NCBI RefSeq assembly: GCF_036365525.1
Contig: NC_090414.1
Location: forward strand, 21,041,846-21,105,845
Reading direction: 5' to 3'
Length of the DNA: 64,000 bases
From: Heterodontus francisci
Lineage: Eukaryota
Part shown: positions 22,961-63,941 of the stretch, piece by piece
Layout: each line of letters opens with the position of its first letter
Position numbering within the stretch: the first letter of the stretch is position 1
The notes under the pieces: generated by a model
Database searches by the model: none
What the model saw: the letters and a program-made list of their open reading frames with translations, nothing else
Told to the model about the DNA's origin: nothing
Program-made: the position numbers and the translations under genes

Positions 22961-24200
22961 GAGGAGTCGGAGAGACACCCGGGCCCGGGGGGAGGGGGGA
23001 GGTTGGTGGGTGGGTGGCGAGGCCGCAGCAGGCCGACCTCAGGACCCTCCTCACCCCGCTGGATATCGGATTCCCGGGGTCGCAGGGCCGCCAACCCGAC
23101 CCCCCCCCCCCCCCCCACAACCTGGAGTTGGAATGAGTGTGCAGCCTCCTCCAGTCGAATAGCCGGGGAGGGTGGGTTGGGGGGAGTTGTGAATTAAAAT
23201 GCTTTGCTTCCTCCTTTTTCCACCCTCCCTCGTTCCTTGAGGCACCTGTTGGCTGGGGGAGGGGAGGGTTGGTGGGGGGGGGACCAAGGCTGGGGGAGGG
23301 GAGGTGGGTGAATAACGCCGGGAGAAGTGGGTGGGTGTCGGTTGGAAGTGGGTGGGTGTAATTCCCCGGTCATTCATTTTCACTTTCGCTTTATACTGAT
23401 TTGTTTTGATTACATTTGTTCTCTGTCTGTGGGTGGGGTGGTGGTGGGGGTGGGGGAGTTTCCCCATCTCAGGGTTGCATCAGAACATAAAGGGGCAGAA
23501 AAAGCCTCCCCTCTCTGAAGCACATTCCTGAGCTCACCTGGGTGTTTATGACCAGCGGGAAGCTTTGCTGATCAGTTTTCTGGAGCTAGGCCGTGAATTG
23601 TCTCGAATGTGGGGTGGGGGTAGGGGGTTTAGTGCTGGTCCCAGTGCCACAAGCACTGGACGACTCAACTCATCCTGTGTCAAGTCACAGCTCAGTGTCT
23701 CACTCTCCTCTCCTGAGTCAGAAGGTTGTGGGTTCGAGTCGGGTCTATATTCTGTGTCCAGCATTCGGATTGGGTCAGGTTTAGGTTGGCTGGGGTCTGA
23801 TTTTGTATCTGTTTCTTTTTAATCTACGTTTTGACGCAATTTTTTTTATTCTGTGCTGATAACATGTTTGATATTTTCCGGGCGGGCATGAAAAAACAAT
23901 TGAAGTAGTCTGGGTCGGGTTTTAATTTTATACCCAAGCCAGGCTTTAGGCTCGTGTCCCACTCCAGAGACTTGAGCACATAAAAATCCAGGCCGACGCA
24001 TCCGGTGTCAGTATTGACCAACTGCTTGGTGGAGATGCTTTGGGTTGGTCCTGAGGTGGGGAAATGTGCAAGTTGCTTCTTGAAGGGGAAAACGAGCAAC
24101 ATCTATGTAATCTGGCCCTGTAGTTTAATCCTCTGAACCCAGGAAGCGTCCTGATTTTGTGTGTGTGTTTTTTTTTAAAGTAGAAACACACAGCAGCACA

Positions 24201-25681
24201 ATGTCAACATCACAGAAGCACCGAGATTTTGTGGCGGAGCCCATGGGGGAGAAATCAGTCAAGTGCCTAGCTGGTATCGGAGAGATCCTCGGAAAACGGC
24301 TAGAAGATCAGGGATTTGACAGGGTAGGTACTGTGTATAGTTTGTTGTTGAAAGGTCGTCGACCTGAAGCGCTCCAATCTGTAATTACATTGAATTTATA
24401 GCACAGAAGCAGGCCATTCGGCCCACTTAGTCCATGCTGGTGTTTCTGCTCCACATGAGCCTCCTCCCACACCTCTTCATCGCACCCCCTCAGCATGTCA
24501 TTCGATGCCTTTCTCCCTCCTGTGTTTATCCAGCTTCCCCTTAAACGCTTCTAATGCGTTTGCCTCAAATGCAGGGCTCATAACGGTCCTGGGTTGTTTG
24601 TGATCTATCTCAGTGATTTAGACTTAAATGTAGGGAGGGGGTGGGGGGGGGGATGTTTCAGACATTTGTAGATGAGATGGAAATTGGCTGTGTGGTTGAT
24701 CGTGAGAAAAGATAGCTGTAGACTGCAGGAAGATATCAATGGATTGGTCAGGTGGGCAGTGAAGTGGCTAATGCAGTTTAATTGGAGAAGGTGAGGTAAT
24801 GCATTTGGGGAGGGCAAACAGGGCAGGGGAACACAATAAATGGTAGCATTCTCAAAAGTGTAGGGGGAACCTTGGAGTCTACAAGTTCCTGAAGGTAGCA
24901 GGACAGCTCGATAAGGTTAAGATGGGATACGGAATACTTCCCTTTATTGGCCTGGACATAGTTTAGAAGAGCAGGGACGTTACGCTAGAACTTGTGTTAA
25001 ACACTAGTTGGGCTGCAGCTGGAGTACTGTGCACAGTTTTGATCGCTGCTTTACAGGGAGGATGTGATCACACTAGAGACGGTACAGAGGAGGTTTACGA
25101 GGATTTTAGCATGAGGCAGGATTGGATAGGTTGAGGTTGGAACAGAAGAGGCGAAGGAGAGATTTAATTGAGGTATGTTGAGTTCTGTTGTGTCTAGCTG
25201 GAGTGGATAGGACGGACCTATTTCCATTAAGAGGTCAGTAACCAGGGGGCATTGAAAGTAATTGGAAGGATTTGAGGAGTTTTCACTGAGAGGGTGGTGG
25301 GTGTCTGGAACTCGCTGCCTGAAAGGGTGGTAGAGGCAGAAACTCTCAACATTTATATTAAAAAATGGATATGCACTCATTGTACCATAACCCAGAGCTA
25401 TGTTTAGACTGGACAGACTCATTGGGCCAAATATCCGCCTCCTATGCTGTATGTTTCTGCCACTCCCTGTGGCACGGGTTCTGTGTTCTTGCCATTCCTT
25501 GGATAGTCCAGTGAATATATGTTTCTTTCCTCAGGCGTATGTGGTGTTGGGACAGTTCCTGGTCTTGAGGAAGAACGAAGATCTCTTTAAAGAGTGGCTG
25601 AAGGATACGTGCCAGGCCAACTCCAAGCAATCCAACGATTGCCACACCTGCCTAAGGGAGTGGTGCGATGCCTTTCTGTAA
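24201..25681 (+). CDS. BANF1: Barrier-to-autointegration factor, 89 aa
   Basis: Exons 24201-24323 ([41 protein letters not shown]) and 25535-25681 ([48 protein letters not shown]); AATAAA at 26279. Confidence 0.97.
24655..25460 (+). mobile_element. Decayed CR1 LINE fragment in BANF1 intron
   Basis: Recognisable CR1 ORF2 3' motifs (ctggagtactgtgcacagttttg, gtacagaggaggtttac, tggaactcgctgcctgaaagggtggtagaggc) with many stops. Confidence 0.7.
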
Positions 25682-26644
25682 AGCTCCCGGCTGCAGCTCT
25701 CCTCTCCCTCCCTCCCTCTTCCTTTGTACTTTTATCGATCTTAAAATGGTGTTAAATTATCCGCTTTGCCTTTATCTCCACCCCCTCCCCTCCCCTCCCC
25801 CCGCCCCACTTCGTGGTTGACGCCCGGAGGTTTTTTTTTTCTGTCTTTCTCTCTGCTGAAATTGTCATCAATTGCTGCTTTGGTGACTGAGTGACCGTTG
25901 TGAATTGATACCAATGAAGGAATGACCACATGAGCTACACCAGCTAATGTGAGGGGGGGAAACTTGTTTGGCTGATAACGTATGCGCGCACTCACCACAG
26001 CGAGGCCCCCTTGAACCTCCCCCCACCCCGTTCCATTAATTGTAGTGTACACTGTTTGATACCCAGTGCACAGCTCACTCCGCAGAGCTCTTTCTCGCGT
26101 GTGAGCTGGCTTGCTGCTTTCCGAAGCGGGGTGAAGGTGTGCTGAATCAACTTGTGAATCGTTTTATTCATTCTTAACCCTCGGGCTTTTCCCTCCTGAT
26201 CTGACTTCCCCCCCCTTGTACTTTTCACAGTGGGTGAGATTCAGCATCGCTATGGAAACCTGTTATTAAATTTTATATAATAAAACACATTAAAAGTCGT
26301 CTTGTCCTTGTGATTTCCTTCTTTCTGCAGTCTCTCTGCCTTTCCTGACCCTCTGGCACCTCATTCCTGTATAAGGCGAAAGAAGTGAGTGTTGGCCCGC
26401 TATTCAACTGTGGGGGCAGTGTATTTCTGACAGTGGGCCTGGGGAATTAATAATGGAAAACGGGGATGAATTGAACAGATATTTTGATTAGAGATACCCT
26501 TTTAGGGAATATTAGATGCAGGACATGAACTAGATTTACTACAGATCTTTCAGACCTGTAACACAGGTTGTATGCCCACTCTAATAGACTACATCTTTAG
26601 ATGTCACACCTGGAGTAATTTTCAAGCTTTATTAGTTTCTGAAG

Positions 26645-30132: not shown

Positions 30133-33051
30133 ATGGAATTGCGAGCATCTGCCGTTACTGATTTCAACATAGATAAAGGTGAGAGGGTGTTAACGGAGGG
30201 GAGAGCTATTTTAGGGAGGAATCTTTTATATTAGATACAGAGTAAAGCTCCCTCTACACCGTCCCCCATCAAATACTCCCAAGACAGGTACAGCACAGGA
30301 TTAAATACAGAGTAAAGCTCCCTCTACACTGTCCCCATCAAATACTCCCAGGACAGGTACAGCACGGGGTTAGATACAGAGTAAAGCTCCCTCTACACTG
30401 TCCCCCATCAAACACTCCCAGGACAGGTACAGTATGGGGTTAGATACAGAGTAAAGCTCCCTCTACACTGTCCCCCATCAAACACTCCCAGGACAGGTAC
30501 AGTACGGGGGTTAGATACAGAGTAAAGCTCCCTCTACACTGTCCCCCATCAAACACTCCCAGGACAGGTACAGCACGGGGTTAGATACAGAGTAAAGCTC
30601 CCTCTACACTGTCCCCCATCAAACACTCCTGGCTCAGGGATGTTAGATGATCTCATCCTATCTTCAGTTGACATCCAATGCATGAAAGTTTCTACAGGAG
30701 ACACTGGATAGCCATGAGGAGCAGGTCCCGGGCTCCTTTGGCCCCTTCTCCTGCCCTGGGATCTGAGACTAGCTGTGTCCTCTTCTAAGTGCTGCCTTCA
30801 GCAGAGACTGCCTAACTTTAACTTGGCAGTAGAGCTTGCTCCTGCAGTATGTAAAAGCCCCAAACTGATTGTGAATCAATTGTTAAACCAGTATCCAAAC
30901 AGCGTGTGTTTTTTTTTTGCACACAAGGAAGAGGTTTGGGGTGAGGACAGGAGAGACTGAAAAACACAATTAGGGAGAGGGACTGAAAAATAGAGGTAAA
31001 GAGAGGAGGCAAATGTGACAGAGACTGGGAGAAAGAGATAGAAAGATGGAGATAAACAATGACAGATGAACAGAGTGAAAGACAAACAGGGATGGAGAAA
31101 TGGAGGGAGGTGTCACACAACCTGGGTGTACTGATTAATATAGATTGATTTATCAGTCTGTCTCTCAGTCTAGCTTTCTCCTTTAATCTTTCTCACTCTC
31201 TCTCTCTCTCTCTCCGTCTCTCACTGTCTGTAACATATCAGCCTAATCCTACCTTCGTTGTTGAAGGGTTTCAGAGAACCTGTTGCCTCCTTTTCCCCGG
31301 TCACTCCCCCCTCCCAGGCCCTGTCCCTCATCTCTCTCTCTCGCCCTCAATTCCAGTCCTGCTCTATCCCCATGGTTACTCACTCTCTCACCTTTTTTTC
31401 CTCTGACACCAATTTTGATCACTGTCAAGAACCTCTCACCGCTTCATTCTCTCCATCTCACTATTTCTTTCGCTCTGCCACTCTCCATCACTCACTTTCT
31501 CCATCTTTTTGTGTCTTTTATTCATTGTCTCCCTCTGTACGTGTCCCACTCTCCCTCTTTGTGTCTCTCTCTCCCTCAGTCTTTCTCTCTCCCTCTGTCT
31601 CTCTCACCTTCTACCTGTCTCTCTCCGTCTGTTTCTCTCTCACCATCTCTCTCTGTCTTTCTCACAGTCTTCTCTCTCAGTCTCTCTCTCTCCCTTTCTC
31701 TTTACATTGACTGTTCCAGATGTCAGTGACCATAAACCCCTCTGCACTGTGTTCAATTCTGGGCATGAGGGAGGGATGAGGGAGGGCAGAGGGTCTAATT
31801 GGATAGATAGGCACAAACACGATGGGCTAAATGGCCTGCTGCTGTGATGGTATGAACATGGAGCTGGTGGTGTCTCTGTGGGACTGCTGCCCTTGTCCTT
31901 CTAAGCAGTGGAACTTGCCGGTTTGGTGGTAAAGATTTCATCGGTCCCAGTGCCTCCCCTGGCATCTGCTCTCCTCTCACTAACTGTGTGTCTCTCTCTC
32001 TCTCGCTGCCTATTCCAGACCACCCTCCTAGCTATCCCACGGCCCACACAACATCGCAAAAGCACAAGAACTTTGTGGTGGAGCCCATGAAGGAGAAGTC
32101 TGTGAAGGAGCTGGCAGGTATCGGCCTGGTCCTGGGAGGGCGCCTGGAAGAGAAGGGCTTCTGCAAGGTGAGGCTTCGGGCTCGCTGCCCTGGTGGGGTG
32201 GGGTGGGGGGTCACAGGGTGAGTGTCACAGTGCACAGGACATGTGGCGCGGAGGGGGCTGGTGGACTGAACTTGCCTTTTGCTAAACCGCACCCACCCAA
32301 TTGTCCTCTTCAAACTCATGATGTAAGACGACAAAGCTCATCCTTAGTTGCCCTTTGAGAAGGTTGGAAGTGGGTCTCCCTCTGGATTTTGACCCAGCGG
32401 CGATGACGGAATGGCCAATATATGGGCAGAAGATCTAGGCTGACATTCCCAGTGTCAGTACCGAGGGAGTGCTGCACTGTCAGAGGCGCCGGCTTTCAGA
32501 TGGGACATGAGGAGGGGGCCCCCCCGTCAGCCCTCTCAGGTGGATGCAAAAGATCCCACGGCCACTATTTTGAAGAGGGTGGGCTCTCTCTCCCCAGTGT
32601 CCTGCTCCGATGTTTAGCCCTCAGATCACATTGCTCTGTGGGATCTTACTGTGCGCAAATCGTCTGCCCAATCTTGATGCCAAGTGACTTCAAAAATGAA
32701 TGGACTTTGTGGCTGAGCTCGGGCAGGTCAGGCCTGAGCCCAAAGGTACCCTGGGGACTGTGTGGATGGGGCCACTATGCTTAGTGTTGCATTATATATA
32801 ACATGCGCGCATACGAGAGTTTGTGCGTGCGCGAGTACTGAGATGCTTTTTGTGTGCCGAGTAGACTGTTGTTTTAATCCCTTTTGATCGGTCCCTGTTT
32901 CCAGGCCAAAGACGTGCTGGGCCAGTTCCTACTACTGAAACAGGATAAAGCTGCCTTCAAAAGCTGGATGAGGCAGGTGTGTTACGCGGGGAACCGGCAA
33001 TCAGAAGACTGTTACCGCTGCCTCAGAGAGTGGTGTGATGCCTTTCTTTAA
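30133..33051 (+). CDS. BANF1-like tandem paralog with N-terminal extension (about 113 aa predicted)
   Basis: Well-supported exons 32019-32167 ([49 protein letters not shown]) and 32905-33051 ([48 protein letters not shown]), same intron position as BANF1; AATAAA at 33199. The first coding exon 30133-30178 (aagATGg, [15 protein letters not shown], phase-1 gtgaga donor) is inferred. Confidence 0.85.
30230..30630. repeat. 70-bp satellite array (~5.5 units)
   Basis: Unit gttagatacagagtaaagctccctctacactgtcccccatcaaacactcccaggacaggtacagcacggg. Confidence 0.95.
32440..32700 (+). mobile_element. Deu-domain SINE fragment
   Basis: gagggagtgctgcactgtcagagg...caggtggatgcaaaagatcccac...gtgggatcttactgtgcgca. 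Confidence 0.7.
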
Positions 33052-33514
33052 AAGGCCTCCTACCTCGCTTAATTCACAGAGTAATAACCTCCTCGAAAAT
33101 GTCCCAATAATCCTTAAGTGTTATTTATTGATCTTTGCAGCCCAAGGTCACGAGGGGGCTTCCAGATTTTATGCTGTGTGTTTAAAAGCTGATTTATTAA
33201 TAAAACTGGCAGGCGTCAGTCTGTTTCCAAGACGAACAGCTTCCATCTTGTCCAGAAACAACATACGTAAAGACTTGCATTTTAGCGCCTCTGATGTGAC
33301 CATTAGAAACGTGACAGCAATGGAGAGAGATATCAGGTGCCTAAACAGCACGGTCTGAAGTAGATTTTAAGGAGGAAAGAGGCGGATAGATTTAAGGAGG
33401 GGATTCCAGAGCTCAGGGCCCCCCAGGCAGCTGAAGGCACGGCCGCCAATGGTGGAGCGATGGGAATCGGGGGATGGGCCAAGAGGCCGGAATTGGAGGA
33501 GCGCAGAGATCTCG

Positions 33515-34455
33515 GAGGGTTGTGGGGGCTGGAGGAGGTTACGGAGATAGGGAGGGTTGTAGGGGCTGGAGGAGGTTACAGAGATAGGGAGGGTTGTAGG
33601 GGCTGGAGGAGGTTACAGAGATAGGGAGGGTTGTAGGGGCTGGAGGAGGTTACGGAGATAGGGAGGGTTGTAGGGGCTGGAGGAGGTTACAGAGATAGGG
33701 AGGGTTGTAGGGGCTGGAGGAGGTTACGGAAATAGGGAGGGTTGGAAGAGGTTACAGAGATAGGGAGGGTTGTGGGGGCTGGAGGAGGTTACAGAGATAG
33801 GGATGGTTGTAGGAGCTGGAGGAGGTTACAGAGATAGGGAGGGTTGTAGGGGCTGGAGGAGGTTACGGAGATAGGGAAGGTTGTAGGGGCTGGAGGAGGT
33901 TACGGAGATAGGGAGGGTTGGAGGAGGTTACAGAGATAGGGAGGGTTGTAGGGGCTGGAGGAGGTTACAGAGATAGGGATGGTTGTAGGAGCTGGAGGAG
34001 GTTACAGAGATAGGGAGGGTTGTAGGGGCTGGAGGAGGTTACGGAGATAGGGAGGGTTGTAGGGGCTGGAGGAGGTTACGGAGATAGGGAAGGTTGTAGG
34101 GGCTGGAGGAGGTTACAGAGATAGGGAGGGTTGTAGGGGCTGGAGGAGGTTACAGAGATAGGGATGGTTGTAGGGGCTGGAGGAGGTTACAGAGATAGGG
34201 AGGGTTGTAGGGGCTGGAGGAGGTTACAGAGATAGGGAGGGTTGTAGGGGCTGGAGGAGGTTACAGAGATAGGGAGGGTTGTAGGGGCTGGAGGAGGTTA
34301 CAGAGACAGGGAGGGTTGTAGGGGCTGGAGGAGGTTACAGAGATAGGGGAGGGTTGTAGGGGCTGGAGGAGGTTACAGAGAGGGATGGTTGTAGGGGCTG
34401 GAGGAGGTTACAGAGATAGGGAGGGTTGTAGGGGCTGGAGGAGGTTACAGAGACG
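33515..34455. repeat. 37-bp purine-rich minisatellite grown from an L2 fragment (33360-33520)
   Basis: Unit gggagggttgtaggggctggaggaggttacagagata, ~25 copies, directly continuing the L2-like sequence. Confidence 0.93.
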
Positions 34456-34751: not shown

Positions 34752-34956
34752 TTAGATACAGAGTAAAGCTCCCTCTACACTCTCCCCCATCAAACACTCC
34801 CAGGACAGGTACAGCACGGGGTTAGATACAGAGTAAAGCTCCCTCTACACTCTCCCCCATCAAACACTCCCAGGACAGGTACAGCACGGGGTTAGATACA
34901 GAGTAAAGCTCCCTCTACACTCTCCCCCATCAAACACTCCCAGGACAGGTACAGCA
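34752..34956. repeat. 70-bp satellite array (~3 units), truncated by the Tx1 insertion
   Basis: Same unit as 30230; breaks off at ...caggacaggtacagca. Confidence 0.95.
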
Positions 34957-35622
34957 TTGGGGTTGGCTGCTGTCTAATTGGTGTGTTGACTGCTGGTTGC
35001 AGCAACAAGCCTCAGCTGAGAGTGCTGGTGGCAGTTGGAGGTTGCTGAGGTGGAGAGAGCAGCTACACTGAGCAGCGGAAAGCTTTAACAATCACCATTA
35101 AAGAGAAGAGTCTTTTTGTTGGAACCAAGGCTTTGTCTGGAGGTGGGGGCTGAACACCAGTAATTTACTTTACTTTGGACTGTTGGGGGAAGAACAAGTG
35201 GCCGGAACAACAAGGGGTGGGGCTGCCAATTCAGCAGGAATCTGTGCTGCTGCAACAAGCACACAGGGAAGCTCCCTCCCCACACCAATTGCCCAACCTG
35301 GGTCAGCTGAAGCTATCCGGCTAAAGAGACGGAAGGGGATAGATAGTGCCTGGGCAGCTTCAGCTGACTCAGGTGAAGATACCTCCCTCAACCAGAAGAC
35401 CGGAAGACCAAGTGTGCTGGCATTGACTGTTTTAAGTGTGCTGTGTGCACCACCTCCGGAAAGCAAGTCATCCCTTACAGCCTGTCTTTCCCTCTCCTCC
35501 ATACCCTCAGCCTCTCCCCTAACATGTTGTTTGTTTTTTATAGATATTTAATATCTTCTATGAATCTTTTTGTTATTCGGTTTGCAAGCCCACAATTTGG
35601 GGTGGGTTTAGCTGTTAGACCC

Positions 35623-37565
35623 ATGGCAAGCCCTTCATCACCGGTGGCGGGGCCCTCTACAACCTATGCAGCTGCAGCCTCTGTGGCTGCCCACGTGGCC
35701 CCGTCACCCTTTAAATTGATAACATCCAGCCATGGGGTGAAGAGCTATCCCCACCCCAACATGTCCATTGAGGCCTGCATAAAGGCAATGGCCAAGGTTG
35801 TCAGCCCTTCGGCCATTGTTGCAGCTTCAAAGATGTACGGGAAGGCTGTGTTCTTCCTGAAGACCGAGCGGGTGGTGTCCCTGGCCCTGAGTAAAGGGAT
35901 CACTGTGGGGGGGACCTTCCTGCTGGTGGACCCTCTGGGGGCCACTGCGCAGCGGATCATGCTATCAAACGTCCCGCCCTTCATTCCCAGTGAGCTCCTC
36001 CTCCCCCACCTACACCATCTGGGGGAGGTGAGGTCGGAGATCACCCCAATCCCGCTCGGTCTTCGGGAGCACAGCCTCCAACATGTCTACTCCTTCCGCC
36101 GCCAGCTATTTGTGCAGCTGGCAGAGAGCCACTTCAGTGTGGAGTTCCAGGGGAAGGCCTATTGTGTCTTCTGGACCTCGGACGGGGTGCGCTGCCACGT
36201 CTGCAACCTCCCGACCGCCAACTCCATCTCGGCGTCCCAGTGTGGCGCCACTGCACCTCCTCCCACTCCCCCAAAATCTCCTACAGACACCGCTCAGTTG
36301 GTTCCGGAGGCTGTGATTTTCAAGGCCTCCGGCAGGGAGGGGAGTGCCCATCCGGGTGGAAGGAAGGCACGGAGGAAAAATAAACATCAAGAGGCGCATC
36401 GCCTGGACACATTGACACAACCCGAGCCTGAGCTCAGCCCAAGGCCCGATCTTGGGGAGCCCACTTGCCCCAGGGCTGGGCTCAGGCCTTGGGTGACTAA
36501 AAAAAAGGAGGGTGCTGAGGTGGAGGCCTCTGATGACATGGAGGTCTCTGAGCCTCTGCGCCCAACTGGGAAAAAGAGAAGGCACCCCTCCACAGAGGTA
36601 ACACAGGGCCATGAGGTGCAGGGCCCATCTGTTGGAGGGGAGCTGCCTCCTGTTTCGGGTCCCCAGGTTCCCCCTGCCACCACCCATCATCAAGGCTGCA
36701 AAGTCTGAGCAGGAGCTCCCTACCCCTCAGGATGGAGGGGAGGGGAGGGGGAGGCCCCTCCTGGAGGAGTAAGTGGAGGCCTGCTTGTGGTGGGGGAGCC
36801 TGGGGACGCATCCCATTCTGCCACTTGGTCAAGTGCCCTGAGTGGAGGGGAGGGCAGGGCCCCAAAGGGTCGGCCCTCCCGTCCGGAGTCCACCACCAAC
36901 CAGGAGATACCCCACCCAGTTGTAATTGAAAATTTTGTCCCATCTGCTGGGTCTGTGGGTGCTGGCTGAGCAGGAGATGGCCTCCTCTCTTCACCTCTGG
37001 TCCCGGCTCCAGCTGCATTTCCGGAGTTGGGAAGTTCCGTCTTCCCTGGACCGCTCATTGGCCTGGGGACGAAGGTGGAGGGGGGGGTCCTGAACCGCTG
37101 ACGCCCACAGGCTCCGGGTTCACAGTAGAACCCAGAGAGGACTCCTCTGCCATCGATCCTGGGGGTGGGATCGTGACGGAGGCGGGACCAGCTGGTACGG
37201 CCAGGACGTCCAGCCCACAGTGTGTGGTGGGTGTGCCAGCCGCTGGCGGTGACGACCCGGAGGAGGATGGGGATTCGGTGTGGGGCACGGAGGACGACCT
37301 TGATTCCATTGCCAGTGAGGTGGTGGAGTCCCTCATGCCTCCCACCGAGTCTCCTCACATCCCCACGGCGGAACTCCGGGATTTCCTCGCAGCTTGCAGG
37401 GGTTGCCGCAATAAAGTTCAGCTACCCCTCGGCCGTTGGTCGAATCTGGCGCTGATCATCCAGTCCGTCCGTGCCGCCCTCAAGAAAGTGGGCAAGGGTG
37501 CGGGCGTAAAACTGGTTGAGAGGCGCCGGTTTAATGTGTTCCTCAATGGGTTGCTGGAGGAGTGA
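35623..37565 (+). pseudogene. Tx1 ORF1 (RRM/zinc-knuckle nucleic-acid-binding protein), disrupted
   Basis: Tx1-type ORF1 motifs; knuckle reduced to CHVC; broken over frames 35443-36708, 36787-36969, 37173-37565. Confidence 0.8.
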
Positions 37566-37633
37566 AAGGCCAGGTGCACTTCCGCTCCCTCCTCACAGTG
37601 AGCTGTTGGTGACGGGTTTTAAGTACCTTTGAC

Positions 37634-40600
37634 ATGAAGATAACCATAGCCAGCCTCAACATCAACGGCAGCAGGGGGTCTCACCGCAGATTTCACAATC
37701 TCACAGTCCTCAGGGAAGGGAGATACGCGGTGAGCTTTCTGCAGGAAACCCATACCGTTCCGGGAGACGAAGCCACCTGGCTCCAGGAATGGCAGAGTGG
37801 GGTCTACATGAGTCACCTCACCCCTATTTCTAGTGGGGTGGCCCCGACTTTTCAGCCGGAGATCTTGGGGGTCAAGGAGCTAGTGCCGGGCCACTTGCTC
37901 CACCTCGTCGTTCGCCTGGGTAGCGTGCCGCTCCACTTTGTGAACGTGTACACGCCCAGGCCCGGCGCGTTGCGAGCGCGCTTCTTTGAAGAAGTGTCCG
38001 CTCTCTTGAGCTCCATCGATAGCGGCGAGTGCATCATCCTCGGGGGGGATTTTAACTGCACCCTCGAGGTGGGGGATCGCTCCGGTCCCCAGTGCGGCCA
38101 AGCGTCGGTGGAGAAGTTGAGGGAACTGATCAGCTCCCTCAACTTGTTGGACGTCTGGCGGAATCTCCAACCCGACTCCAGCGCCTTCACGTGGAGGTCT
38201 GGAGGAGGAGGGTCCCGAATTGACCACCTTGACATTTTACAGGCGTACGTCTCCCGCAACTCGGCGGCCTCCATGTGGCTGGTGCCGTGCTCGGACCACC
38301 ACCTGGTGTGGGCAGAGTTTAATCCGCTCCGCACGCGGACGGGGTCCGCGTACTGGCACTTTAACAACCGGCTGCTGGAGGATGAGCGATTCCGGGACTC
38401 GTTCTGTCGATTCTGGGCCGACTGGAGAAGGAAGCAGGGGGGGGGCTTCCCCTCCTTGAGGCTGTGGTGGGATGTGGGCAAGACTCACATTGTGGCAGGC
38501 GTACAAAGAGAAGGGCGCGCTGAGGGACCTGCAACTCATAGGGTCCCTAGGCGCGTACGTGAGGTCACGGATCCAGATCCTGGAAGATTTGGACCGCGCC
38601 TCACCCTTCTCGCTGGAAAAATGGAGAGGGGTCCGTAAGGAGCTCATCGAGCTGCTGGCCGAGGACGGATCCTCCATCACGGATCTGGAGGGAATGGGCC
38701 CCCTGGTCCGTACTTATTACAGTGCTTTGTTCTCTCCAGATCCGTCCAGCGAGGATACGCACAGAGTTTTGTGGGAGGACCTGCCGCTTTCAGACTCGGG
38801 CCGCATTTCGTGGCCCGGGTCCGACTTTTATACGCCGCCGCAGAGTGTCTAGTCAAAGTTAACGGGTCCTTGACGGCACCCCTTCAATTTGGGAGAGGAG
38901 TGTGTCAGGGATGCCCCATGTCCGGCCAACTGTACATCATCTGCGTGGAGCCCTTCCTGTGCCTGCTTCGCAGGAGGTTGACAGGATTGGCTCTGCGCGA
39001 GCCAGCCATGCGGGTCGTCCTCTCGGTTTGGGCCGATGACGTGCTCCTCGCGGTCACAGATCCCGTTGACTTGCGGAGGATGCGCGACTGCCAGCAGAAC
39101 TTTTCTGCCACATCCTCCGCGAAGATCAATTGGGAGAAATGTTCCGGTCTCCTGGTGGGTCAGTGGCGGGTGGACTCCCTGCCGGAGGAGATGACACCTT
39201 TTGCGTGGAGCACCACGCACCTCCTCTATTTGGGAGTTCACCTTAGCCCCGCTGAGGAAGCCTGGCTGGTAAACTGGCAGGAGCTGGAGTGAAAGTCACC
39301 GCTCGGCTGGGGCGCTGGACAGGACTACTCCGAGTGCTTTCCTACAGGGGCCGAGTGCTGGTCATAAACCAACTGGTGGCCTTGATGCCGTGGTACTGGT
39401 TGGTCATTTTAGCCCCGCCCCCTGCATTAGCCACCAAGATCCAGAAGAAACTCGTCGATTTCTTCTGGGGCAAGAGGAAACACTGGATCCCTGCTGCGGT
39501 CCTGAGTCTCCCGATTGAGGAGGGCGGCCAGTCGCACCCAGGCTGCGACTCTCCGCCTTCGGACCCTGCAGAGATATCTGTATGTCGAGCGTCCTCCCAA
39601 ATGGTGTGCGCTGGCGACGTATTTTTTCCGCAGTGTCATTGCCTTCAAGACGACACGCAGCTCCCGGCGGAGACCGTTAGCCGCGCCACTCTGAGGGAGT
39701 TGCCTGTCTTTTACCAGGATCTACTTTGAGTCTGGAACATGGTCGCCTCCAGTCAGGGCGCTCCCCCGCTGGCGGAGGAGAGCGCCTCGGCTGTCCGGGC
39801 GGCCAACTCCGGGGACGGACCGGCAGGCGGAGGAATAGCCGAAGCCCCCGGGACGCCCCTCACTGCGGGTGGCGAGGGGGCGCGGGACAGCAGACTGCTC
39901 CTGGCCAAGCTGCTCCCTGCTCGGCCGGAACTGCTGATCGGACCCAGGTCCCGAAACCCTCCTCGGAGCCGGTCCCGCACAACCCGAGCCGCCTCTCAGA
40001 AACGCCCTCCGTGCCATTCCAATCGGCACGGAGGGGTTTCCTGTACGGGCTGGCTGCTCCTGCACACTCTCCACTTCCTCGCCCTCGTCAGCCGACCGGA
40101 CACGCCCTGGTGGTCCGCGTTGCCATCTGGCGGCGAGGGGAAACCCCGATGGAGGTCTCTCTACGCGGGAGTCTTCCCCCTTTACATCGGGGACCTGGGA
40201 TGGAGGGTGTTGCACAGGGCAGCCCCGTGCAATAGACTTTTAAGTAGGTTCACGGACTCCCAGGCCACCTGTACTTTCTGCGGCCTGGATGAGTCCGTGT
40301 TCCATGTAAATATGGAGTGTGCGAGGTTGCAGCCCCTATTTGAGTATTTGAAGGGGCTGCTCCTCAAGTTCTGGCTGCACTTCAGTCCCACGCTCCTGAT
40401 CTTTGGGCACCCGGTGCGATGGGGCGTGGGCCGGGAGGAGGATCTCCTCGTCGGTCTGCTGCCGGGCCTGGCCAAGGTGGCAATTCACAGGTCCAGGTTG
40501 CGGGCTGTCGGGGGGGGGGGTCCGTCCTCCCTGATTGCGCAGTTACGTTTGCCCCGGGTGTCCCTGGAGAAGGAGCATGCGGTGTCCGCTGGTACGCTTG

Positions 40601-40674
40601 AGGCCTTCCGTGACCGGTGGGCACCACAGGGACTGGAGTGCATTGTCGACGCCGAGAATGGCATTTTAATTTGA
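37634..40674 (+). pseudogene. Tx1 ORF2 (APE endonuclease-reverse transcriptase), frameshifted with internal deletions
   Basis: SLNING, FLQETH, GGDFNC, SRID, SDHH (APE); GVCQGCPMSGQLY and WADD (RT); CTFCGLDESVFHVNMEC (zinc finger). N-terminal RT motifs are missing near 38790. Confidence 0.9.
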
Positions 40675-40711
40675 GTTTTTGGTTTATTTATCTGGTTTTA
40701 ATAAAGTTAAA

Positions 40712-41050
40712 GGGCGGCACAGTGGTTAGCACCGCCGCCTCACAGCTCCAGGGACCCGGGTTTAATTCCGGGTACTGCCTGTGTGGAGTTTGCAAGTTCT
40801 CCGTGTCTGCGTGGGTTTCCCTCCGGGTGCTCCGGTTTCCTCCCACAAGCCAAAAGACTTGCAGGTTGGTAGGTAAATTGGCCATTATAAATTGCCCCTA
40901 GTTTAGGTAGGTGGTAGGGAAATATAGGGACCAGTGGGGATGTGGTAAGAATATGGGATTAGTGTAGGATTAGTATAAATGGGTGGTTGATGGTCGGCAC
41001 AGACTCGGTGGGCCGAAGGGCCTGTTTCAGTGCTGTATCTCTGAACTAAA
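40712..41050 (+). mobile_element. HE1-like tRNA-derived V-SINE nested in the Tx1 3' UTR
   Basis: gggcggcacagtggttagcacc...gggacccgggtttaattcc (A/B boxes), V-domain gtgtggagtttgca...gtgtctgcgtgggtttcc...ggtttcctcccaca, tail gggccgaagggcctgtttcagtgctgtatctct. Confidence 0.85.
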
Positions 41051-41698
41051 AAATTATTTTAAAAAATATGTATATAAAGGGGGCCTGAGGAATAAAGGCC
41101 CCCTCGACATGAAACATATAAAAGGGGCCTGGGGTATAAAGGCCACCTTTAAATAAAAAAAGGGGTTAGACACAGAGGAAAGCCTCCATTCTTCCAACTG
41201 ACTTTTACAGAGACAATGCACAAAACACAAAACAGTTGATAATACAGGAAATACATTTATTAGATAAATGAATACAAGGCTATATAAAACAGTAATACTT
41301 AGTGCTTGACTGAGCAAGTACCAGTGGACTACCCATTCCACAGCAGAGGGAGCAGGGTTTAACCAAGGCTGATTGATTCTCTGACAGACAGCACTGAAGT
41401 AGCTGCAAGTGGTTAAAAATTCCTACTGGTTATTGTGTGTGTGTTAGGTGCAGCAGATCGTGTGCTTTGGTGAAGCAGCTGGCTAGGCCTTGGGACTGTC
41501 CATCTTCTCAACGTGTGAGCGGTCCAGTTTGGGTTAAGGTGACTGCAAGCACACAGCGACGTCGGGACAGGAGTGCCACACCAAGCTCTTCACCCCCTCG
41601 GATATGAAATGGTGATTATTATTGCACTAGAGAAGCGTGGGACCCAGCTGCTGGCACTTGCCTGGGCAGGGGGCGTGACGGACGCTGGCTTGGTGGAG

Positions 41699-48391: not shown

Positions 48392-51300
48392 CTAAGAGTC
48401 ATAATCGTCATCTTCCTCGCCATCTTGACTGCAGACCATTGGGGCGGGCGCTGGCATCGGCAGGTTGCTCATCACTGGTGAACACATGGGCATTGGCAAC
48501 ACTGGCAGAGGAGTGCTGAAGACTGACTCGGGGCTGCAGGAGACAAGTGAAACAGAGTCTGTGGTTATACCTTTTGCCACCTCCCAAAGCACTTCACAGC
48601 CAATGGGGTAGAGTGTTCCATCACGTCTACAGCACGCGGACAGGCCATTCGGCCCATCTGGTCTGTGGCAGGCCTTTACGCTCCATGCAAACCTTCCCCC
48701 ACTCCCCCTCTCCGTCTCACCCCATCAGCATACCCTTCTATTCCTTTGTTGATTGAGGGATAGATATCGGTTCAAGGGCACGGGGGGCGGTTGGGCGTGG
48801 AGAACTCCCCTGCTCTTCCTTAAATAGTGGCCGAGGGACCTTTCACAGAGGGCAGACGGGGAGGCCTCAATTTAACTGCGTTGGGCCTCAGGACTACACC
48901 AGGCGAGATCAGTTAACTGTGCAGTGGCCGAGGATGGAATCCCGCTGCTCCGCCTGATTTGGTTAACTCCACGTTCCAATTCAGCACCAATTTAGATTCA
49001 TGGAAAATTATCCTTGGAAAAACCAACACCTTCAGACAGGTTGCACAGCGCACGGGAAGAGTGTTTCGGTTTAGCCTCCCCACTGCTCAACACAGAGCTT
49101 GGGGGCACAAGACAGCAGGTTCTGCCACTCTCCGACCAGCAGCAGGATCTGCTAAGGCGGGCTCCCTGACGGGTGACATGTCACGAGCAGCCACCAACCT
49201 CTGAATTTTGTCTCCGGGTCTGTCCGTGCTGGACCGAGACACCTCTTCCTCGTCCGTGTCACTGTCCTCGGACTCGTCCTGTTGGCACAAAGTGACAAAA
49301 TTGGGAATTCAGCAGGTATTCTCCAGCGCGTTGGTCCACTGTGCACGAACCATTGTGGCGCATGAGCTATTTGACAGTAGAAGCATCGCACTACACCAGA
49401 AAGCTAGTTGAAGGATTATGCCGGAGCCAATCTTTACTTAATCTTACATTTATTTTACAAAGTAACAAGTTTACAAACATGCAGCTCCTCACTCAGTTCA
49501 CCCAGTTTCAGTAATTGTCTCCTTATAAAAACTCAAGTAAAACCCTACTCAACACCCGCCATCTGCATATTATTAAACACAATTAACAATTGCGGTCATG
49601 CCCTATCCAGTCATGGGGCGGGGTATCGTGGCTAAGTGGAATTCGACCACATGGGCATCACAGCCACGTACTATTCACACACGGGTCAACGCAATCATTG
49701 TCTGCGATGCCAGGCTGGGCCAAACTTGGAGTGCGATCGGGGTGGGGGGGTGGTGGGGGGGGTTGCTACAGACTGACTCACCTCCTGTTCCGATTCCGTA
49801 CTCGACTGCTTCTTGTCCTTCCCTTTCGCCCCGGCCCCTCCATTTGTGTTTCTCCGCCCAGACCCGGGCTTCCTCCCCCTGGTAATGACACAAAGACGAG
49901 TTCAAGCGTGAATAATACATTCCAGCGTTAAACCAGTCCAATCCCTCCCTCTGGGCACCACCCCCCCCCCCCCACTTCCTCCTCCAGGAGCAGGCTCTCG
50001 CTGGTGTTCAGCTCGGCGGACAGCCTCGGGTACTGTGGTCAGTCGACTGTGGGGGGCATCACAGCCCGCATCTTCCAGCGGGGGCAACATAGAGCAGGAA
50101 AAAGGTTCAGGCCTGTACTAACACAGAACAGGCCGACGATGGGGAGAGAGAGTGAATGAGTGCGAGTGTCTGTCTCAGTACATCGAGGAAGGGGAAGGGG
50201 GATTGCTGTCCTTTAACCTCTCAGCACCTACCTGCGTGGGGTCTTGTCCCCTTCCATGTGGTTGTCCTCATTATCGCCCTGTATGTCTGGCACAGAGGCT
50301 ACTAAGTCCTTCAGGAAGTCAAACTGCTGCTCCAGCTCAATGCACTGCTTCCTGGAAGCAAACATCCCATAATGTTAACATTATGCTCTCCCTTACCATC
50401 AGCACTCTTCCCCCAGCTATCTTCTGACCCCGAGCTGACCTTCAAAACAACGCCCCCCCCCCACCACCCCGTACCCTCCAAAATCCCCAGGACTGCCTTC
50501 ATAACATCACCGTCCCTGCCTCTGCAACCCTTCTGCGACAGGGAGGTTGATTAATTGTATGCTCTGGGTTGTTACTCTGTGACACCCGCTGTACTGTGCC
50601 AACGCAGAGGGAGGTCAGAACCACAGGTTCAAAGGTCAGCTGGCATTCGCCCCCTAGACTGTCATAAAACTCCCAGGACAGGTACAGCACGGGGGTTAGA
50701 TACAGAGTAAAGCTCCCTCTACACTGTCCCCCATCAAACACTCCCCAGGACAGGTACAGCACGGGGGTTAGATACAGAGTAAAGCTCCCTCTACACTAAA
50801 AAAAAAAAAAAAAAAAAAACGGGGGTTAGATACAGAGTAAAGCTCCCTCTACACTGTCCCCATCAAACACTCCCAGGACAGGTACAGCACGGGGGTTAGA
50901 TACAGAGTAAAGCTCCCTCTACACTGTCCCCATCAAACACTCCCAGGACAGGTACAGTACGGGCGTTAGATACAGAGTAAAGCTCCCTCTACACTCTCCC
51001 CATCAAACACTCCCAGGACAGGTACAGAACGGGGGTTAGATACAGAGTAAAGCTCCCTCTACACTGTCCCCATCAAATACTCCCCAGGACAGGTACAGTA
51101 CGGGGGGGTAGATACAGAGTAAAGCTCCCTCTACACTGTCCCCCATCAAATACTCCCAGGACAGGTACAGCACGGGGGTTAGATACAGAGTAAAGCTCCC
51201 TCTACACTGTCCCCCATCAAATACTCCCAGGACAGGTAAAGCACGGGGGTTAGATACAGAGTAAAGCTCCCTCTACACTGTCCCCATCAATGCATTCTCA

Positions 51301-54244: not shown

Positions 54245-56040
54245 ACTAGGGTCCCCTCCCCCCTCCGGCCAGTGTTGCTAGGGCCCCCTCCCTCGTCCGG
54301 CCAGTGTTGCTAGGGTCCCCTCCCTCGTCCGGCCAGTGTTGCTAGGGTCCCCTCCCTCGTCCGGCCAGTGTTGCTAGGGTCCCCTCCCTCGTCCGGCCAG
54401 TGTTGCTAGGGTCCCCTCCCTCCTCCGGCCAATGTTGCTAGGGTCCCCTCCCTCGTCCGGCCAGTGTTGCTAGGGTCCCCTCCCTCATCTGCCAGTGTTG
54501 CTAGGGTCAGCTCCCTCCTCCGGCCAATGTTGCTAGGGACCCCTCCCTCCTCCGGCCAGTGTTGCTAGGGACCCCTCCCTCCTCCGGTCAGTGTTGCTAG
54601 GGTCCCCTCCCTCATATGCCAGTGTTGCTAGGGTCCGCTGTCTCCTCAGGCCAGTGTTGCTAGGGACCCCTCCCTCCTCCGGCAAGTGTTGCTAGGGACC
54701 GCTCCCTCCTCCGGCCAGTGTTGCTAGGGACCCCTCCCTCCTCCGGCCAGTGTTGCTAGGGACCCCTCCCTCCTCCGGCCAGTGTTGCTAGGGACCCCTC
54801 CCTCCTCCGGCCAGTGTTGCTAGGGACCCCTCCCTCCTCCGGCCAGTGTTGCTAGGGACCCCTCCCTCCTCCGGCCAGTGTTGCTAGGGACCCCTCCCTC
54901 CTCCGGCCAGTGTTGCTAGGGACCCCTCCCTCCTCCGGCCAGTGTTGCTAGGGACCCCTCCCTCCTCCGGCCAGTGTTGCTAGGGACCCCTCCCTCCTCC
55001 GGCCAGTGTTGCTAGGGACCCCTCCCTCATCTGCCAGTGTTGCTAGGGTCCCCTCCCTCATCTGCCAGTGTTGCTAGGGTCCCCTCCCTCTTCCGGCCAA
55101 TGTTGCTAGGGACCCCTCCCTCCTCCGGCCAATGTTGCTAGGGACCCCTCCCTCCTCCGGCCAATGTTGCTAGGGACCCCTCCCTCCTCCGGCCAATGTT
55201 GCTAGGGACCCCTCCCTCTTCCGGCCAATGTTGCTAGGGACCCCTCCCTCCTCCGGCTAATGTTGCTAGGGACCCCTCCCTCCTCCGGCTAATGTTGCTA
55301 GGGACCCTTCCCTCCTCCGGCCAATGTTGCTAGGGTCCCCTCCCTCGTCCACCAGTGTTGCTAGGGGCCCCTCCCTCCTCCGGCCAATGTTGCTAGGGTC
55401 CCCTCCCTCGTCCGCCAGTGTTGCTAGGGACCCCTCCCTCCTCCGGCCAATGTTGCTAGGGTCCCCTCCCTCATCTGCCAGTGTTGCTAGGGTCCCCTCC
55501 CTCCTCCGGCCAATGTTGCTAGGGACCCCTCCCTCCTCCGGCCAATGTTGCTAGGGTCCCCTCCCTCATCTGCCAGTGTTACCAGAGCCCCCTCCCTCCC
55601 CCGGCCAGTGTTGCCAGGTCCCCCTCCCTCCCCCGGCCAGTGTTGTTAAGGTCCCCTCCCTCGTCCACCAGTGTTGCTGGGGACCCCTCCGTCTTTCAGC
55701 CAGTGTTGCTAGGGACCCCACCGTCTTTCAGCCAGTGTTGCTAGGGTCCCCTCCCTCATCCGCCAGTGTTGTTACGGTCCCCTCCCTCATCCGCTAGCTT
55801 TGCTAGGGTCCCCTCCCTCATCTGCCAGTGTTGCCAGGGACCCCTCCCTCCTCCGGCCAGTGTTGCTAGGGATCCCTCCCTCCTCCGGCTGGCATTGCCA
55901 GGGTCATCTCTCTCCTCCGGTCAGTGTTTCTCGGGATTCCACTCCCCCTCCAGCCAATATTGCTAGGGGGAACAACCCCCTCTGACCAGTGTTGCTCGGA
56001 TTCCCCCTCTCCTCTAGCCAGTGTTGCTAGGGGCCTCTCT
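54245..56040. repeat. 32-bp minisatellite in C11orf68 intron
   Basis: Unit gccagtgttgctagggacccctccctcctccg, decaying toward 56040. Confidence 0.95.
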
Positions 56041-60678: not shown

Positions 60679-63600
60679 CTACTGTGTCTCATAGATCTTG
60701 TTTATCTCGGAGGAGTTCATCAGCTCAAAGCTCTGGGAAAAGAGGGACATAAAGTGCTCCTCTTCCGTGTTATCGGCCAGGAAAGCGGCTGTAGGCTCCA
60801 GGTCCCCATTGAGCGCCCCCTCCCCGGGATCGGCCTTCTCGTCTTCCTGGTTGCTGGCCATGAGCTTCAGGATGTCGGGCGAGTAGCTCATCAGGGTGGT
60901 GGTCTGCATACTGCTGGCCAAGCCATCCAAATTGAAATCGGGCATCAGGGTTCTCTGTAGGTTGTGCTGCTGCTGCGGGTTCACCATCTCCTGCCTCAGC
61001 ATTTCCCGGAAATCCATGTTGTCGATGGAGCCCAGGCTGACGCACTCCCCCTCCTGCCCCATCAGGGCCCCTCCGACCAGGAACTGATCCATCGAGCTGG
61101 GCCCGTCGGTCAGGTACAGCTCGGGCTTGGCCATGCAGGGGGCATTCGAGCCGCCCCCACCACCGCCTCCTCCTCCTCCTCCCCCCATGTCCTGGCTGAG
61201 CTGGAAGGAGGTGCCGAACAGCTCGGTCACGTCGATAGTGGAGAAGGCGTTGGGGACGTTGGCGACGTCGGGGGCCTTGCTCGCAAAGGCGAAGGGGCTC
61301 GCCATCTGCCCGGCCCGGTTGTCTGTCACTGCCGGGGTCAGGTAGTAAGGCTGTTGGGGGGCGGGAGTGGGCACCGTGGAGGCCGTGGCAGCTGCCTGGG
61401 GGTGGCAGGTGCCGGTGGAGAAGCGGTCAAGCGGTTGGTAGCCGATGTTGGCCGGCACGGTCCCTCCCAGGAGGTCCGGAGCGTTCCCACCTGAGGAGAC
61501 ACAAAAGAGAGCAGGAGACCCTCGTTAAACACCTCGTAAATTAATCCCACCGGACCATATCGCACAAACCCCCACCTTCTCCCTGTATCTCATCCCCCCA
61601 CCCCCCCCCCCGCGCCACCCAATCTCACTGCCCCACTCCCCACAACCCACCCACAGCAAACGGTTAAATGAACCGCCAACCTCTCTGGCCGAGTTTCTCG
61701 TATAGTTTGGATTTGGCCGCTCTGTTGTCGTTTGTGACTCGATGGGGCATCGCGATGGGTCGCTGGGCAGGGGGTGCACCTGGGGGGGGGGAGGGGGGGG
61801 GAGAAAGAGAGGTCACAGGTCAGGAAGGCAAGCCAATCATTACACATTAAAATACAATATATATATATTTTTTTAAATGAGATAGACAGACCGTGGCAGA
61901 CAGACAACAATGAGCTCCTCACCCTGCATGTTGCATTTCTGAAGCATGTTCATAAATTCGATGTGTGTTTTACGCCGTTTCTCCTGGGTGCCGTAGGGAT
62001 CTGTTTTTTTTTTATTTAAAAGAAAAAAGAGAAATCATATTTGGAACAACCCCCGCACAGACACTGCGTGGCCCAAGATAATGAACATACGTTGATGCAA
62101 TCATTGAGGCACTGAATCAGAGGAGAGTGGATTCTGCACACACTCCGGGAATGATTTCTGATCACCGCAGAGCAGAATCCTGTCAAGAACAGCCCTTTGC
62201 GTGCGTCAAGCAAGACTATTCAACTGTGGGGATCGTCACCTCCCACCTGATTGGGCCCTCAATGGAAGCATCCTCGCGCGCGCACAAGCCCTTACACACT
62301 TGACAGCTAGCATCCATGCAGATAGGATGTTTGAATCGAGTGTGCACACTCCCAAATGTTAGGCAGGTAAAATAAGTCATCGCAAGATCGCCACTTGTGG
62401 ACCCCCCCACCCCCCACCGCCCACCGCGCGCGTCACAGTGAAGTGTTGCATCGTTAGGAGGGGCTGCGGCCAACGTCCAAGCCCAGTCCAGAGGCTCAGC
62501 CAACCCCTAGAGGCGCACGCATTCCCAGAAGGAGCAGTGACCGGCAGCAAGAACCTCTGGCTGATTCCTCCCTCCCCACAAAGGCAGAGGCAAACTGCAG
62601 CTCGTGCTCCCACCGAGGTTGGAACCTTCCAGGGCGCACAGCTCAACACAGAACTGCGAGGGGCCTCGGGGGGGGGGGGGGGGGACGTGGCGAGGCAGCG
62701 AAGGGCGCGGTTCCCCGCCTGCCGGGAGCAGCTACCTTTATCGTCGGGCAGATACTGGAACTCCATGGCGTCGCTGACTTCCTTGTCCGACGGGCGGCGG
62801 AGCTGCATGTGGACTGTGACGGGCTGGCTCAGCGTCACGTCCCTGTAGGGCGGGGTCTTGAACACAATGGCCACCTGCCTGTGGACGTCTGCCTGAGAGA
62901 AGGACCCCTTCCCTTCCCAGTCGTTGGTGAAGAATCGCACCTCAATATCCTCTGATCGCGGAGGGGGGGGGACGCGGGATGGCGGAGGGAGAGAGAAGAA
63001 CATGGGTTACAGCTGGCCTTCCACCTCACCCAAACCCACCCCCTTCACTCCCCACCCACCCACATCCCATGAGGCATCGGCCCATTGCACAGGGACAATT
63101 TTCATGCCCTTCCCAAGTCCGGGATGGATTTGACCATGTCCGGTTTAAACTGCTCATATCACCCACTCCCGCCAGCAGGCCGAGCCAGAACCCGTCTTCC
63201 CCACACACAATATTCCAATCACCTTTCTGAACTTTGTCACACAGCAGAAAGATCTCCTCTCCGCCCTTACAGCTCCCAGAGTTCTTGTTCACACGACAGA
63301 TCTTCAGCTCTGCGGTGTTCGGGGCCCCTGAAATCGGAGAAAGTAATCCCTTCAAAACGCTGGCCATTATCGCACAAGGCGATGTTAGATACAGAGTAAA
63401 GCTCCCTCTACACTGTCCCCATCAAACACTCCCAGGACAGGTACAGCACAGGGGTTAGATACAGAGTAAAGCTCCCTCTACACTGTCCCCATCAAACACT
63501 CCCAGGACAGGGACAGCACGGGGTTAGATACAGAGTAAAGCTCCCTCTACACTGTCCCCATCAAAAAAAAAAAGACGGGGGTTAGATACAGAGTAAAGCT

Positions 63601-63941
63601 CCCTCTACACTGTCCCCCATCAAACACTCCCAGGACAGGTACAGCACGGGGTTAGATACAGAGTAAAGCTCCCTCTACACTGTCCCCATCAAACACTCCC
63701 AGGACAGGTACAGCACGGGGTTAGATACAGAGTAAAGCTTCCCCTCAAACTGAGATGGAGACAGTCTGGTACCCGTTTCTACGGTGATTCTCCTACTCAC
63801 GGTTGTCATAGATTGGGTTGGAGACGACAGGCGGAAGGGGCGCTTTGCAAATCCCAAGCTCGTTGGGAAGAAAGACTTGGAAGCAGAGCCGGACCACGTT
63901 CAAATCTTCCTCTGTCTCGTTCATCAACTCCTCTGGTGAGA
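60679..63941 (-). CDS. RELA: NF-kB p65 (RelA), 3' portion; gene begins beyond the window end
   Basis: Exons 63941-63801 ([14 protein letters not shown]...SNPIYDNR), 63327-63223 ([34 protein letters not shown]), 62951-62736 (EDIEVRFF...[20 protein letters not shown]...[10 protein letters not shown]), 62000-61923 (NLS EKRRKT), 61779-61681 (RPIAMPHR), 61490-60679 (transactivation region). RelA-like TA motifs [13 protein letters not shown] and [11 protein letters not shown] plus 11q13 synteny favour RELA over REL. Confidence 0.88.
63385..63745. repeat. 70-bp satellite array (~5 units) with internal poly(A) tract
   Basis: Same unit; A11 at 63563-63573. Confidence 0.95.

Follow-up and report, generated by a model that had tools for sequence, protein, structure and literature searches.

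Introduction

The described targets of Tx1-clade retrotransposons include Tx1D, U2, microsatellites, transposons and a class listed as 'Sat' (PMC4494074, Kojima 2015; this and the sources below are cited from their accessible portions). The endonuclease of Tx1L reads about 10 bp, and long interspersed elements (LINEs) fall into relaxed and stringent types (PMC1919474, PMC3747384). Tx1-Mar of crocodilians moves SINEU to its target (PMC4494074), and a telomere-specific element of the anole, Tx1-1_ACar, is cited in PMC10088271. Carriage of downstream sequence, or 3' transduction, is on record for L1, R7Ag and R1Bm, and R1Bm uses the downstream target (PMC7265360). Outside mammals, CR1 or Tx1 elements have been proposed to sustain retrocopies, a link drawn from abundance only (preprint 10.64898/2026.06.26.734816). 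Here we analyze a Tx1 element in a 64,000-nucleotide stretch of the shark Heterodontus francisci (NC_090414.1, positions 21,041,846 to 21,105,845 of the forward strand; hereafter the window), together with its family and the 70-bp tandem repeat in which it lies. We consider it highly probable that this young, Tx1L-related family prefers one site in the repeat and carries pieces of the repeat to repeat-free places, likely through RNA that runs on past the tail.

Results

Positions below are those of the window; L-numbers denote individual loci, and C1-C3, C25 and C36 are chromosomes of the 6.0-Gb genome. The initial annotation had described a repeat array that stops at 34956, an element from 34957 and a near match to the repeat from 41162 after the A tail, and the sequence agrees. 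The locus is laid out as follows:

34752..34956, + strand: upstream part of a 70-bp repeat array, 2.9 units (about three), which stops at the insertion site ...GGTACAGCA
34957..34964, + strand: target-like 8-nt leader TTGGGGTT of the element, standing where a duplicated target would be
34965..35622, + strand: 5' untranslated region (UTR), by alignment to natural intact copies L112, L125 and L130
35623..37601, + strand: remnant of open reading frame 1 (ORF1), frameshifted and with its zinc-knuckle stretch gone, by comparison with intact copies
37634..40674, + strand: remnant of ORF2 with APE endonuclease, reverse transcriptase (RT), C-terminal Cys motif and frameshifts, by Pfam and alignment
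40710..41049, + strand: short interspersed element (SINE), a later insertion into the 3' UTR, not present in other copies
41050..41161, + strand: end of the 3' UTR with two GC hairpins (z = -4.2) and an A7 tail at 41155-41161, by sequence and folding
41162..41183, + strand: 22 bp of the target unit, its downstream half (GGGGTTAGACACAGAGGAAAGC), followed by unique DNA

The element is 6.2 kb long and 87-92% identical to natural intact copies. Pfam recognized the endonuclease and RT remnants, and comparison with natural intact copies located ORF2 deletions of ~125 bp after 38490 and ~520 bp near 38780. With its ORF1 frameshift, these deletions and the inserted SINE, the window copy is a dead, decayed full-length member of its family. 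The SINE is putatively HE1-like. At this locus only 22 bp of repeat stand 3' of the A7 tail, with 2 mismatches to the 70-bp unit, where 0 matches are expected (100 shuffles). The element had been read as splitting one repeat unit. The repeat does resume after the tail, but the split is not blunt, with the leader at 34957-34964 intervening, and the existence of target-site duplications (TSDs) of about 13-14 bp corrects the earlier reading of the junction.

The exact 22-bp motif of the 3' end occurs at 1,633 places in the genome (815 forward, 818 reverse; control 0), and the family has at least this many 3' ends. In a search for the endonuclease, 139 of 23,102 candidates were scored, 97 of them within an open frame of 1252 codons; several of the 97 stand head to tail, ~6.7 kb apart. 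From these we picked 40 intact copies by hand for spread. All 40 encode an ORF2 of 1245 aa, with a mean identity of 98.8%. Intact ORF1 is 679-681 aa long, carries a CCHC zinc knuckle (CX2CX4HX4C) in L112, L125 and L116, and gave no Pfam match. The ORF2 of the natural copy L101 has an N-terminal APE endonuclease (PF03372, E 5e-16) and an RT (PF00078, E 4e-37). Among the protein matches listed, the nearest named one is Xenopus laevis Tx1L ORF2 (YTX2_XENLA; 54% over 948 aa), and others come from Heterodontus francisci (91%) and a ray (72%). In an RT tree (quick IQ-TREE search, 84 rows, midpoint root, partial turtle rows left out), the shark rows grouped with those of sturgeon, Tx1L and turtle (SH-like approximate likelihood ratio, SH-aLRT, 100), Tx1L being the only named Tx1 family included. 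Keno, Dewa, Mutsu, Kibi and Koshi, further families of the clade, had no named sequences among the 120 protein matches listed, and neither did the 'Sat' family of PMC4494074. A poly(A) 3' end and a TSD, both traits of the Tx1 clade, are present. Together with the layout of ORFs and domains, these results agree with the clade first proposed, and on its sequence the family is assigned to Tx1 as a young, Tx1L-related member. The family is likely still active. Membership of the Tx1L family proper, which inserts into Tx1D, was rejected, as the flanks are the 70-bp repeat and identity is only 54%. At least four different types of 5' UTR stand behind the same leader (L101-L140, L203-L234), as if promoters had been swapped among subfamilies.

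The insertion point is ACAGC^ACGGGGTTAG within the dispersed 70-bp repeat, of which the genome holds 14,480 exact 37-mers. A random insertion would fall on this site with a chance of about 1e-5, even if sites were ten times more numerous. Target-like sequence follows the tail in 27 of 29 close relatives of the window copy, three of these being partial or behind a spacer, and target-like flanks were found in 39 of the 40 intact copies. As a census, we classed by hand all 90 exact 3'-end motif places on C1-C3, out of the 1,633 genome-wide; an automatic flank classifier mislabelled several rows, and the hand classes were used for this reason. In total, 45 places were on target, 40 off and 5 unclear. 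Of 50 places within about 20 Mb of chromosome ends (terminal set), 43 were on target, 4 off and 3 unclear, but of the 40 in the interior set, which includes four near ends, 2 were on target, 36 off and 2 unclear. We therefore conclude that the family has a real site preference and not strict specificity. Satellite targeting, as initially proposed, stands in this looser form. The threshold for a target-specific Tx1 in PMC4494074 is more than 20% of flanks, and here the figure is 45 of 90 after removal of the cargo described below. The on-target share genome-wide may exceed that on C1-C3.

TSDs were called at 26 off-target sites, with lengths of 11-18 bp and mostly 13-14 bp; four additional calls were discarded as on-target or doubtful. 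These sites keep CANC^A of the target's ACAGC^A, with C at -1 in 22 of 26 (control for C^A: mean 5.0, max 13), C at -4 in 16 and A at -3 in 14, while A at +1 is inflated by the registering of sites. Downstream GGGGTTAG is not retained off target. The target includes one telomere unit, GGGTTAG (41162-41168), and copies crowd near chromosome ends. A search for A7 followed by telomere units gave 0 matches in this genome assembly, from which telomeres may be absent, and targeting of (TTAGGG)n in the manner of Tx1-1_ACar was rejected on these 0 junctions.

What stands 3' of the tail is often more than the target. Chains of [target piece + A tract] follow it, and at least two A tracts are present in 30 of the 40 intact copies. 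Some chain pieces consist of the 5' end of the copy lying downstream (L123, L129, L139), others of unique DNA; the unique piece of L114 has one other match in the genome, at the end of an array on C36. Identical cargo variants with identical breakpoints occur on different chromosomes (L116/L130, L126/L131). Among off-target copies of the interior set, 19 of 36 have repeat cargo, and in 16 the cargo lies inside the TSD. The cargo is 293 bp in L189, 247 bp in L175 and 199 bp in L172, with no repeat 12-mer in the 3 kb upstream. A second pattern, A8 plus target, has 2,407 matches genome-wide, and we fetched 20 places. All 9 interior places fetched (C1-C3) have a Tx1 3' end, cargo and a tail at non-repeat sites, with abutting TSDs at 7; L241 holds about 8 units inside a 14-bp TSD. 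The remaining 11, near chromosome ends, lie within arrays or behind elements. The arrangement typical of L1 3' transduction, a downstream flank and a second A tail in one TSD, is present in 16/40 and 7/9 of the places, respectively, and the bracketed cargo ranges from 5 bp to about 8 units. With repeat cargo inside TSDs at repeat-free sites, we conclude that the element moves its own target to new places by 3' transduction and that the repeat is, for this reason, more than the passive harbour first suggested. The transduced repeats likely supply fresh landing sites. Tabulating the 30 nt after the poly(A), as the initial annotation advised, counts cargo as target, and ~69 of 90 places would score in this way against 45 true ones. 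The A8 plus target matches are skewed by strand (878 forward, 1529 reverse), unlike the 3'-end motifs, perhaps reflecting the amplification of a single large array or a few.

In one flank lay a tailed fragment of the mRNA for ribosomal protein S14 (RPS14; PF00411). Genome-wide, RPS14 has one intron-split parent and 11 intron-less copies, and 7 of the 11 stand at the target or the leader, one of the 7 being the copy that prompted the search; one is full-length with a TSD. The RPS14 RNAs lack the target sequence, which argues that site choice at the level of the protein is sufficient and against homing by RNA only. The tails of the processed host mRNAs at the site are plain A tails. We conclude that intron-less host gene copies were likely placed at the target by the same Tx1 machinery. 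At L270 (C25:74596828-74596913), only the 5' part of an mRNA that we take to be SEC61G-like stands with an A tail at the target, a tailed fragment and not a 3' end.

At the 5' side, we collected 107 distinct full-length ends from all loci retrieved, a non-random set. The repeat precedes 78 of them, the A tail of another copy precedes 25, and neither precedes the other 4. The 8 nt before the 5' UTR form the target-like leader, which reads CTGGGATT in 46 of 103 classed 5' ends, and its variants recur at full-length 5' ends genome-wide. The CTGGGATT form is not in the common unit and therefore travels with the element; the leader is heritable and belongs to it. Single cases hint at a long repeat-derived leader: L108, and a variant common to L031-L033, whose flanks are not segmental duplicates. 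L108 also has a target duplication of ~250 bp in an old array; just before the leader, its last bases change to those of the common unit, a hint that homology may guide 5' joining. In L187, the TSD is separated from the 5' end of the truncated element by ~100 bp of tRNA-like sequence, as a template switch might leave; ARAGORN called no tRNA.

For the repeat itself, we inspected 43 array pieces at 6-14 Mb of C1. Of these, 24 have a Tx1 piece and 6 have a tail plus target only. A defined 5' end of arrays (TTAGATAC in 3 of 4 window arrays) was absent from a larger sample and was dropped. Rfam gave no match on the repeat and one chance match elsewhere, and no folding signal was found in it (z 0.03 and -0.33); a ribozyme or structured RNA was rejected. 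Identity as a SINE or retrozyme was rejected, the repeat having no RNA-gene head, ribozyme or defined tailed ends. The repeat is present at 10 of 10 sampled words in sequencing runs of three organisms, where 9 rows are possibly the source DNA itself. Contigs of the same three organisms hold relatives of the ORF2 end, mostly <90% alike in two. At L087:1500-2388, a repeat piece of 36 bp and its A tract have together been amplified ~13x in tandem, by which a Tx1 footprint has become a new higher-order unit.

Three further 70-bp arrays lie in the window:

30231..30629, + strand: plain array with no A tail and no Tx1 piece, by sequence
50693..51290, + strand: second array, in which a partial unit and A tail adjoin CGGGGTTAG at about 50764-50820, as a footprint of the Tx1 machinery
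63384..63739, + strand: third array, which includes a partial unit followed by an A tail (about 63520-63577); it adjoins Rel-homology exons and is likely intronic

A Pfam scan of 148 of the 277 open stretches in the window identified exons of an EIF1AD-like gene, BANF1, a second BAF-like gene, a cystatin, Bles03 and a Rel-homology gene. The element stands between the last exon of the BAF-like gene (about 32920-33070) and the 3' end of the minus-strand cystatin gene, and the locus therefore looks intergenic; an intron, as the initial annotation had it, is not evident there. The two barrier-to-autointegration-factor genes form a tandem pair (24129-25700 and 31856-33070), the second clearly diverged. 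An array of a 33-bp unit (14 kb, 424 copies, 7221-21511) lies between the EIF1AD-like and BANF1 exons, and others have units of 37 bp (33514-34453), 35 bp (5498-5748) and 32 bp (54246-56039). We take the 37- and 35-bp units to resemble pieces of L2 and CR1 LINEs.

Discussion

We propose the following steps. The APE endonuclease would nick the bottom strand at CAGC^A, reading mainly the upstream bases, and a single T:A pair would prime reverse transcription. Weak 3' end formation would let transcripts read through and be polyadenylated at variable points, adding one piece per generation. Cargo delivered off target would act as seeds, that is, as new targets that can grow into arrays, giving positive feedback. 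The RT would accept any polyadenylated RNA, with the protein and the local target density setting site choice. Finally, the leader would anneal to the target at 5' joining and could itself be re-used as a target; copies do stack head to tail.

Several alternatives have to be weighed against this account. Were the family a strict specialist on a passive safe-harbour satellite, with the repeat spreading by its own means only, the flanks of terminal copies (43/50) and intact copies (39/40) would look as they do, and arrays without a Tx1 trace (13/43) would be expected. However, 36 of the 40 interior-set copies are off target, and the TSD-bracketed cargo at repeat-free sites contradicts a strict specialist unless the TSD calls were artefacts, and we regard this explanation as very improbable. 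A second possibility is that the Tx1 lineage makes and spreads the repeat, which would then be nothing but a non-autonomous partner resembling a SINE or retrozyme. The 30 of 43 array pieces with a Tx1 piece or an A tail plus target would fit such a partner, as would the co-occurrence of repeat and Tx1 relatives in three organisms. We nevertheless judge it improbable, given the lack of an Rfam match or folding signal, the variable, untailed array ends and the presence of every sampled repeat word in organisms whose Tx1 relatives are mostly <90% alike.

The [piece + A tract] units could instead be long target-site duplications, or insertions of poly(A) only, in existing arrays. The duplication of ~250 bp at L108 and the many pieces that break right before an A of the repeat are consistent with this, and inside arrays the two origins are indistinguishable, so this route likely explains some pieces. 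As the explanation for the units at large it is very improbable, leaving unaccounted for the pieces at repeat-free sites, those taken from the 5' end of a downstream element (L123, L129, L139) and the variants shared across chromosomes. The pieces of L116/L130, moreover, match a distant source copy and differ from the unit that follows them. More credible, though still unlikely, is that most of the preference comes from RNA and not from protein, with read-through target RNA pairing with the nicked primer strand. Read-through is common, GGGGTTAG downstream is not kept off target, and a precedent has been proposed for R1Bm (PMC7265360, accessible portion). The presence at the site of 7 of 11 RPS14 copies, which lack target sequence, speaks against such homing.

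Preference together with 3' transduction remains the reading that we favor, and a number of results weigh against it. The census classes were set by hand, and many terminal copies were judged from the 3' side alone. No Tx1 element lies within ~1.5 kb upstream of the C36 donor of L114 in this assembly, and the donor search for L189 returned L189 only. Two of the RPS14 copies on target have a flank in common and could stem from a single event; of 3 SEC61G-like retrocopies only 1, the copy from which the search started, is on target; retrocopies of BANF1 were not found in the genome. Comparison of 27 pairs gave no support for a long repeat-derived 5' leader (all p > 0.09), and the growth of seeds into arrays and their re-use as targets are inferred. 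Lastly, 13 of the 43 array pieces on C1 have neither a Tx1 piece nor an A tail and none of the 43 ends in an A tract, and therefore most arrays are not simple tailed transductions. We conclude that the element is one dispersal route for the repeat, without its status as the main route being established. A stronger version, in which element and repeat form a self-reinforcing pair, the element is the main founder of conserved satellite loci, seeds grow and are re-used, and the satellite is the main sink for processed pseudogenes, is possible but doubtful.

Each ingredient has precedent, and the new part is the loop. Like Tx1L of Xenopus laevis, the shark family has two ORFs and an APE endonuclease, inserts into another repeat, and falls in one clade with the sturgeon and turtle proteins. 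In contrast, Tx1L targets the DNA transposon Tx1D (PMC4494074, PMC1919474) and the shark family a 70-bp tandem unit, which it often misses and also moves. Tx1-Mar/SINEU and the 'Sat' Tx1 elements likewise show preference, not strictness, for a dispersed repeat, and Tx1-Mar/SINEU shares tandem insertions around the TSD and the carriage in trans of other RNAs to the same target; hitchhiking with the target was tested and rejected there, and the accessible portion of that paper contains no report of a target carried to new sites or of mRNA retrocopies at the target (PMC4494074). Tx1-1_ACar is of the same clade, and the shark target holds one telomere unit, but no junction of an A tail with (TTAGGG)n was found in the shark assembly. 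The transductions of L1, R7Ag and R1Bm have the same downstream flank and second A tail in one TSD (PMC7265360). In the shark, however, what is carried is the dispersed target of the element itself, in about half of off-target copies, and the pieces pile up serially, whereas R1Bm and R7Ag target rDNA and their transduction was seen in assays (PMC7265360). No publication on this pairing, or on a Tx1 element that spreads its own target, turned up in a search that left Repbase Reports and most subscription papers outside. The pairing appears new to that extent, but a satellite target for Tx1 is already listed in the legend of Fig. 3 of PMC4494074, and an annotation of the family and its target may exist already.

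Short satellites occur at thousands of separate places, and how they get there is an open question; here one route is visible through its dated footprints: the tail, the TSD and shared variants. An element that prefers a target and builds its own supply of it is relevant to the maintenance or loss of site specificity, and specificity scores based on flanks overcount when the target is transduced. The many near-identical intact copies make the family accessible to direct assay. In addition, processed pseudogenes in a non-mammalian vertebrate can here be tied to one identified LINE by the signature of their insertion site.

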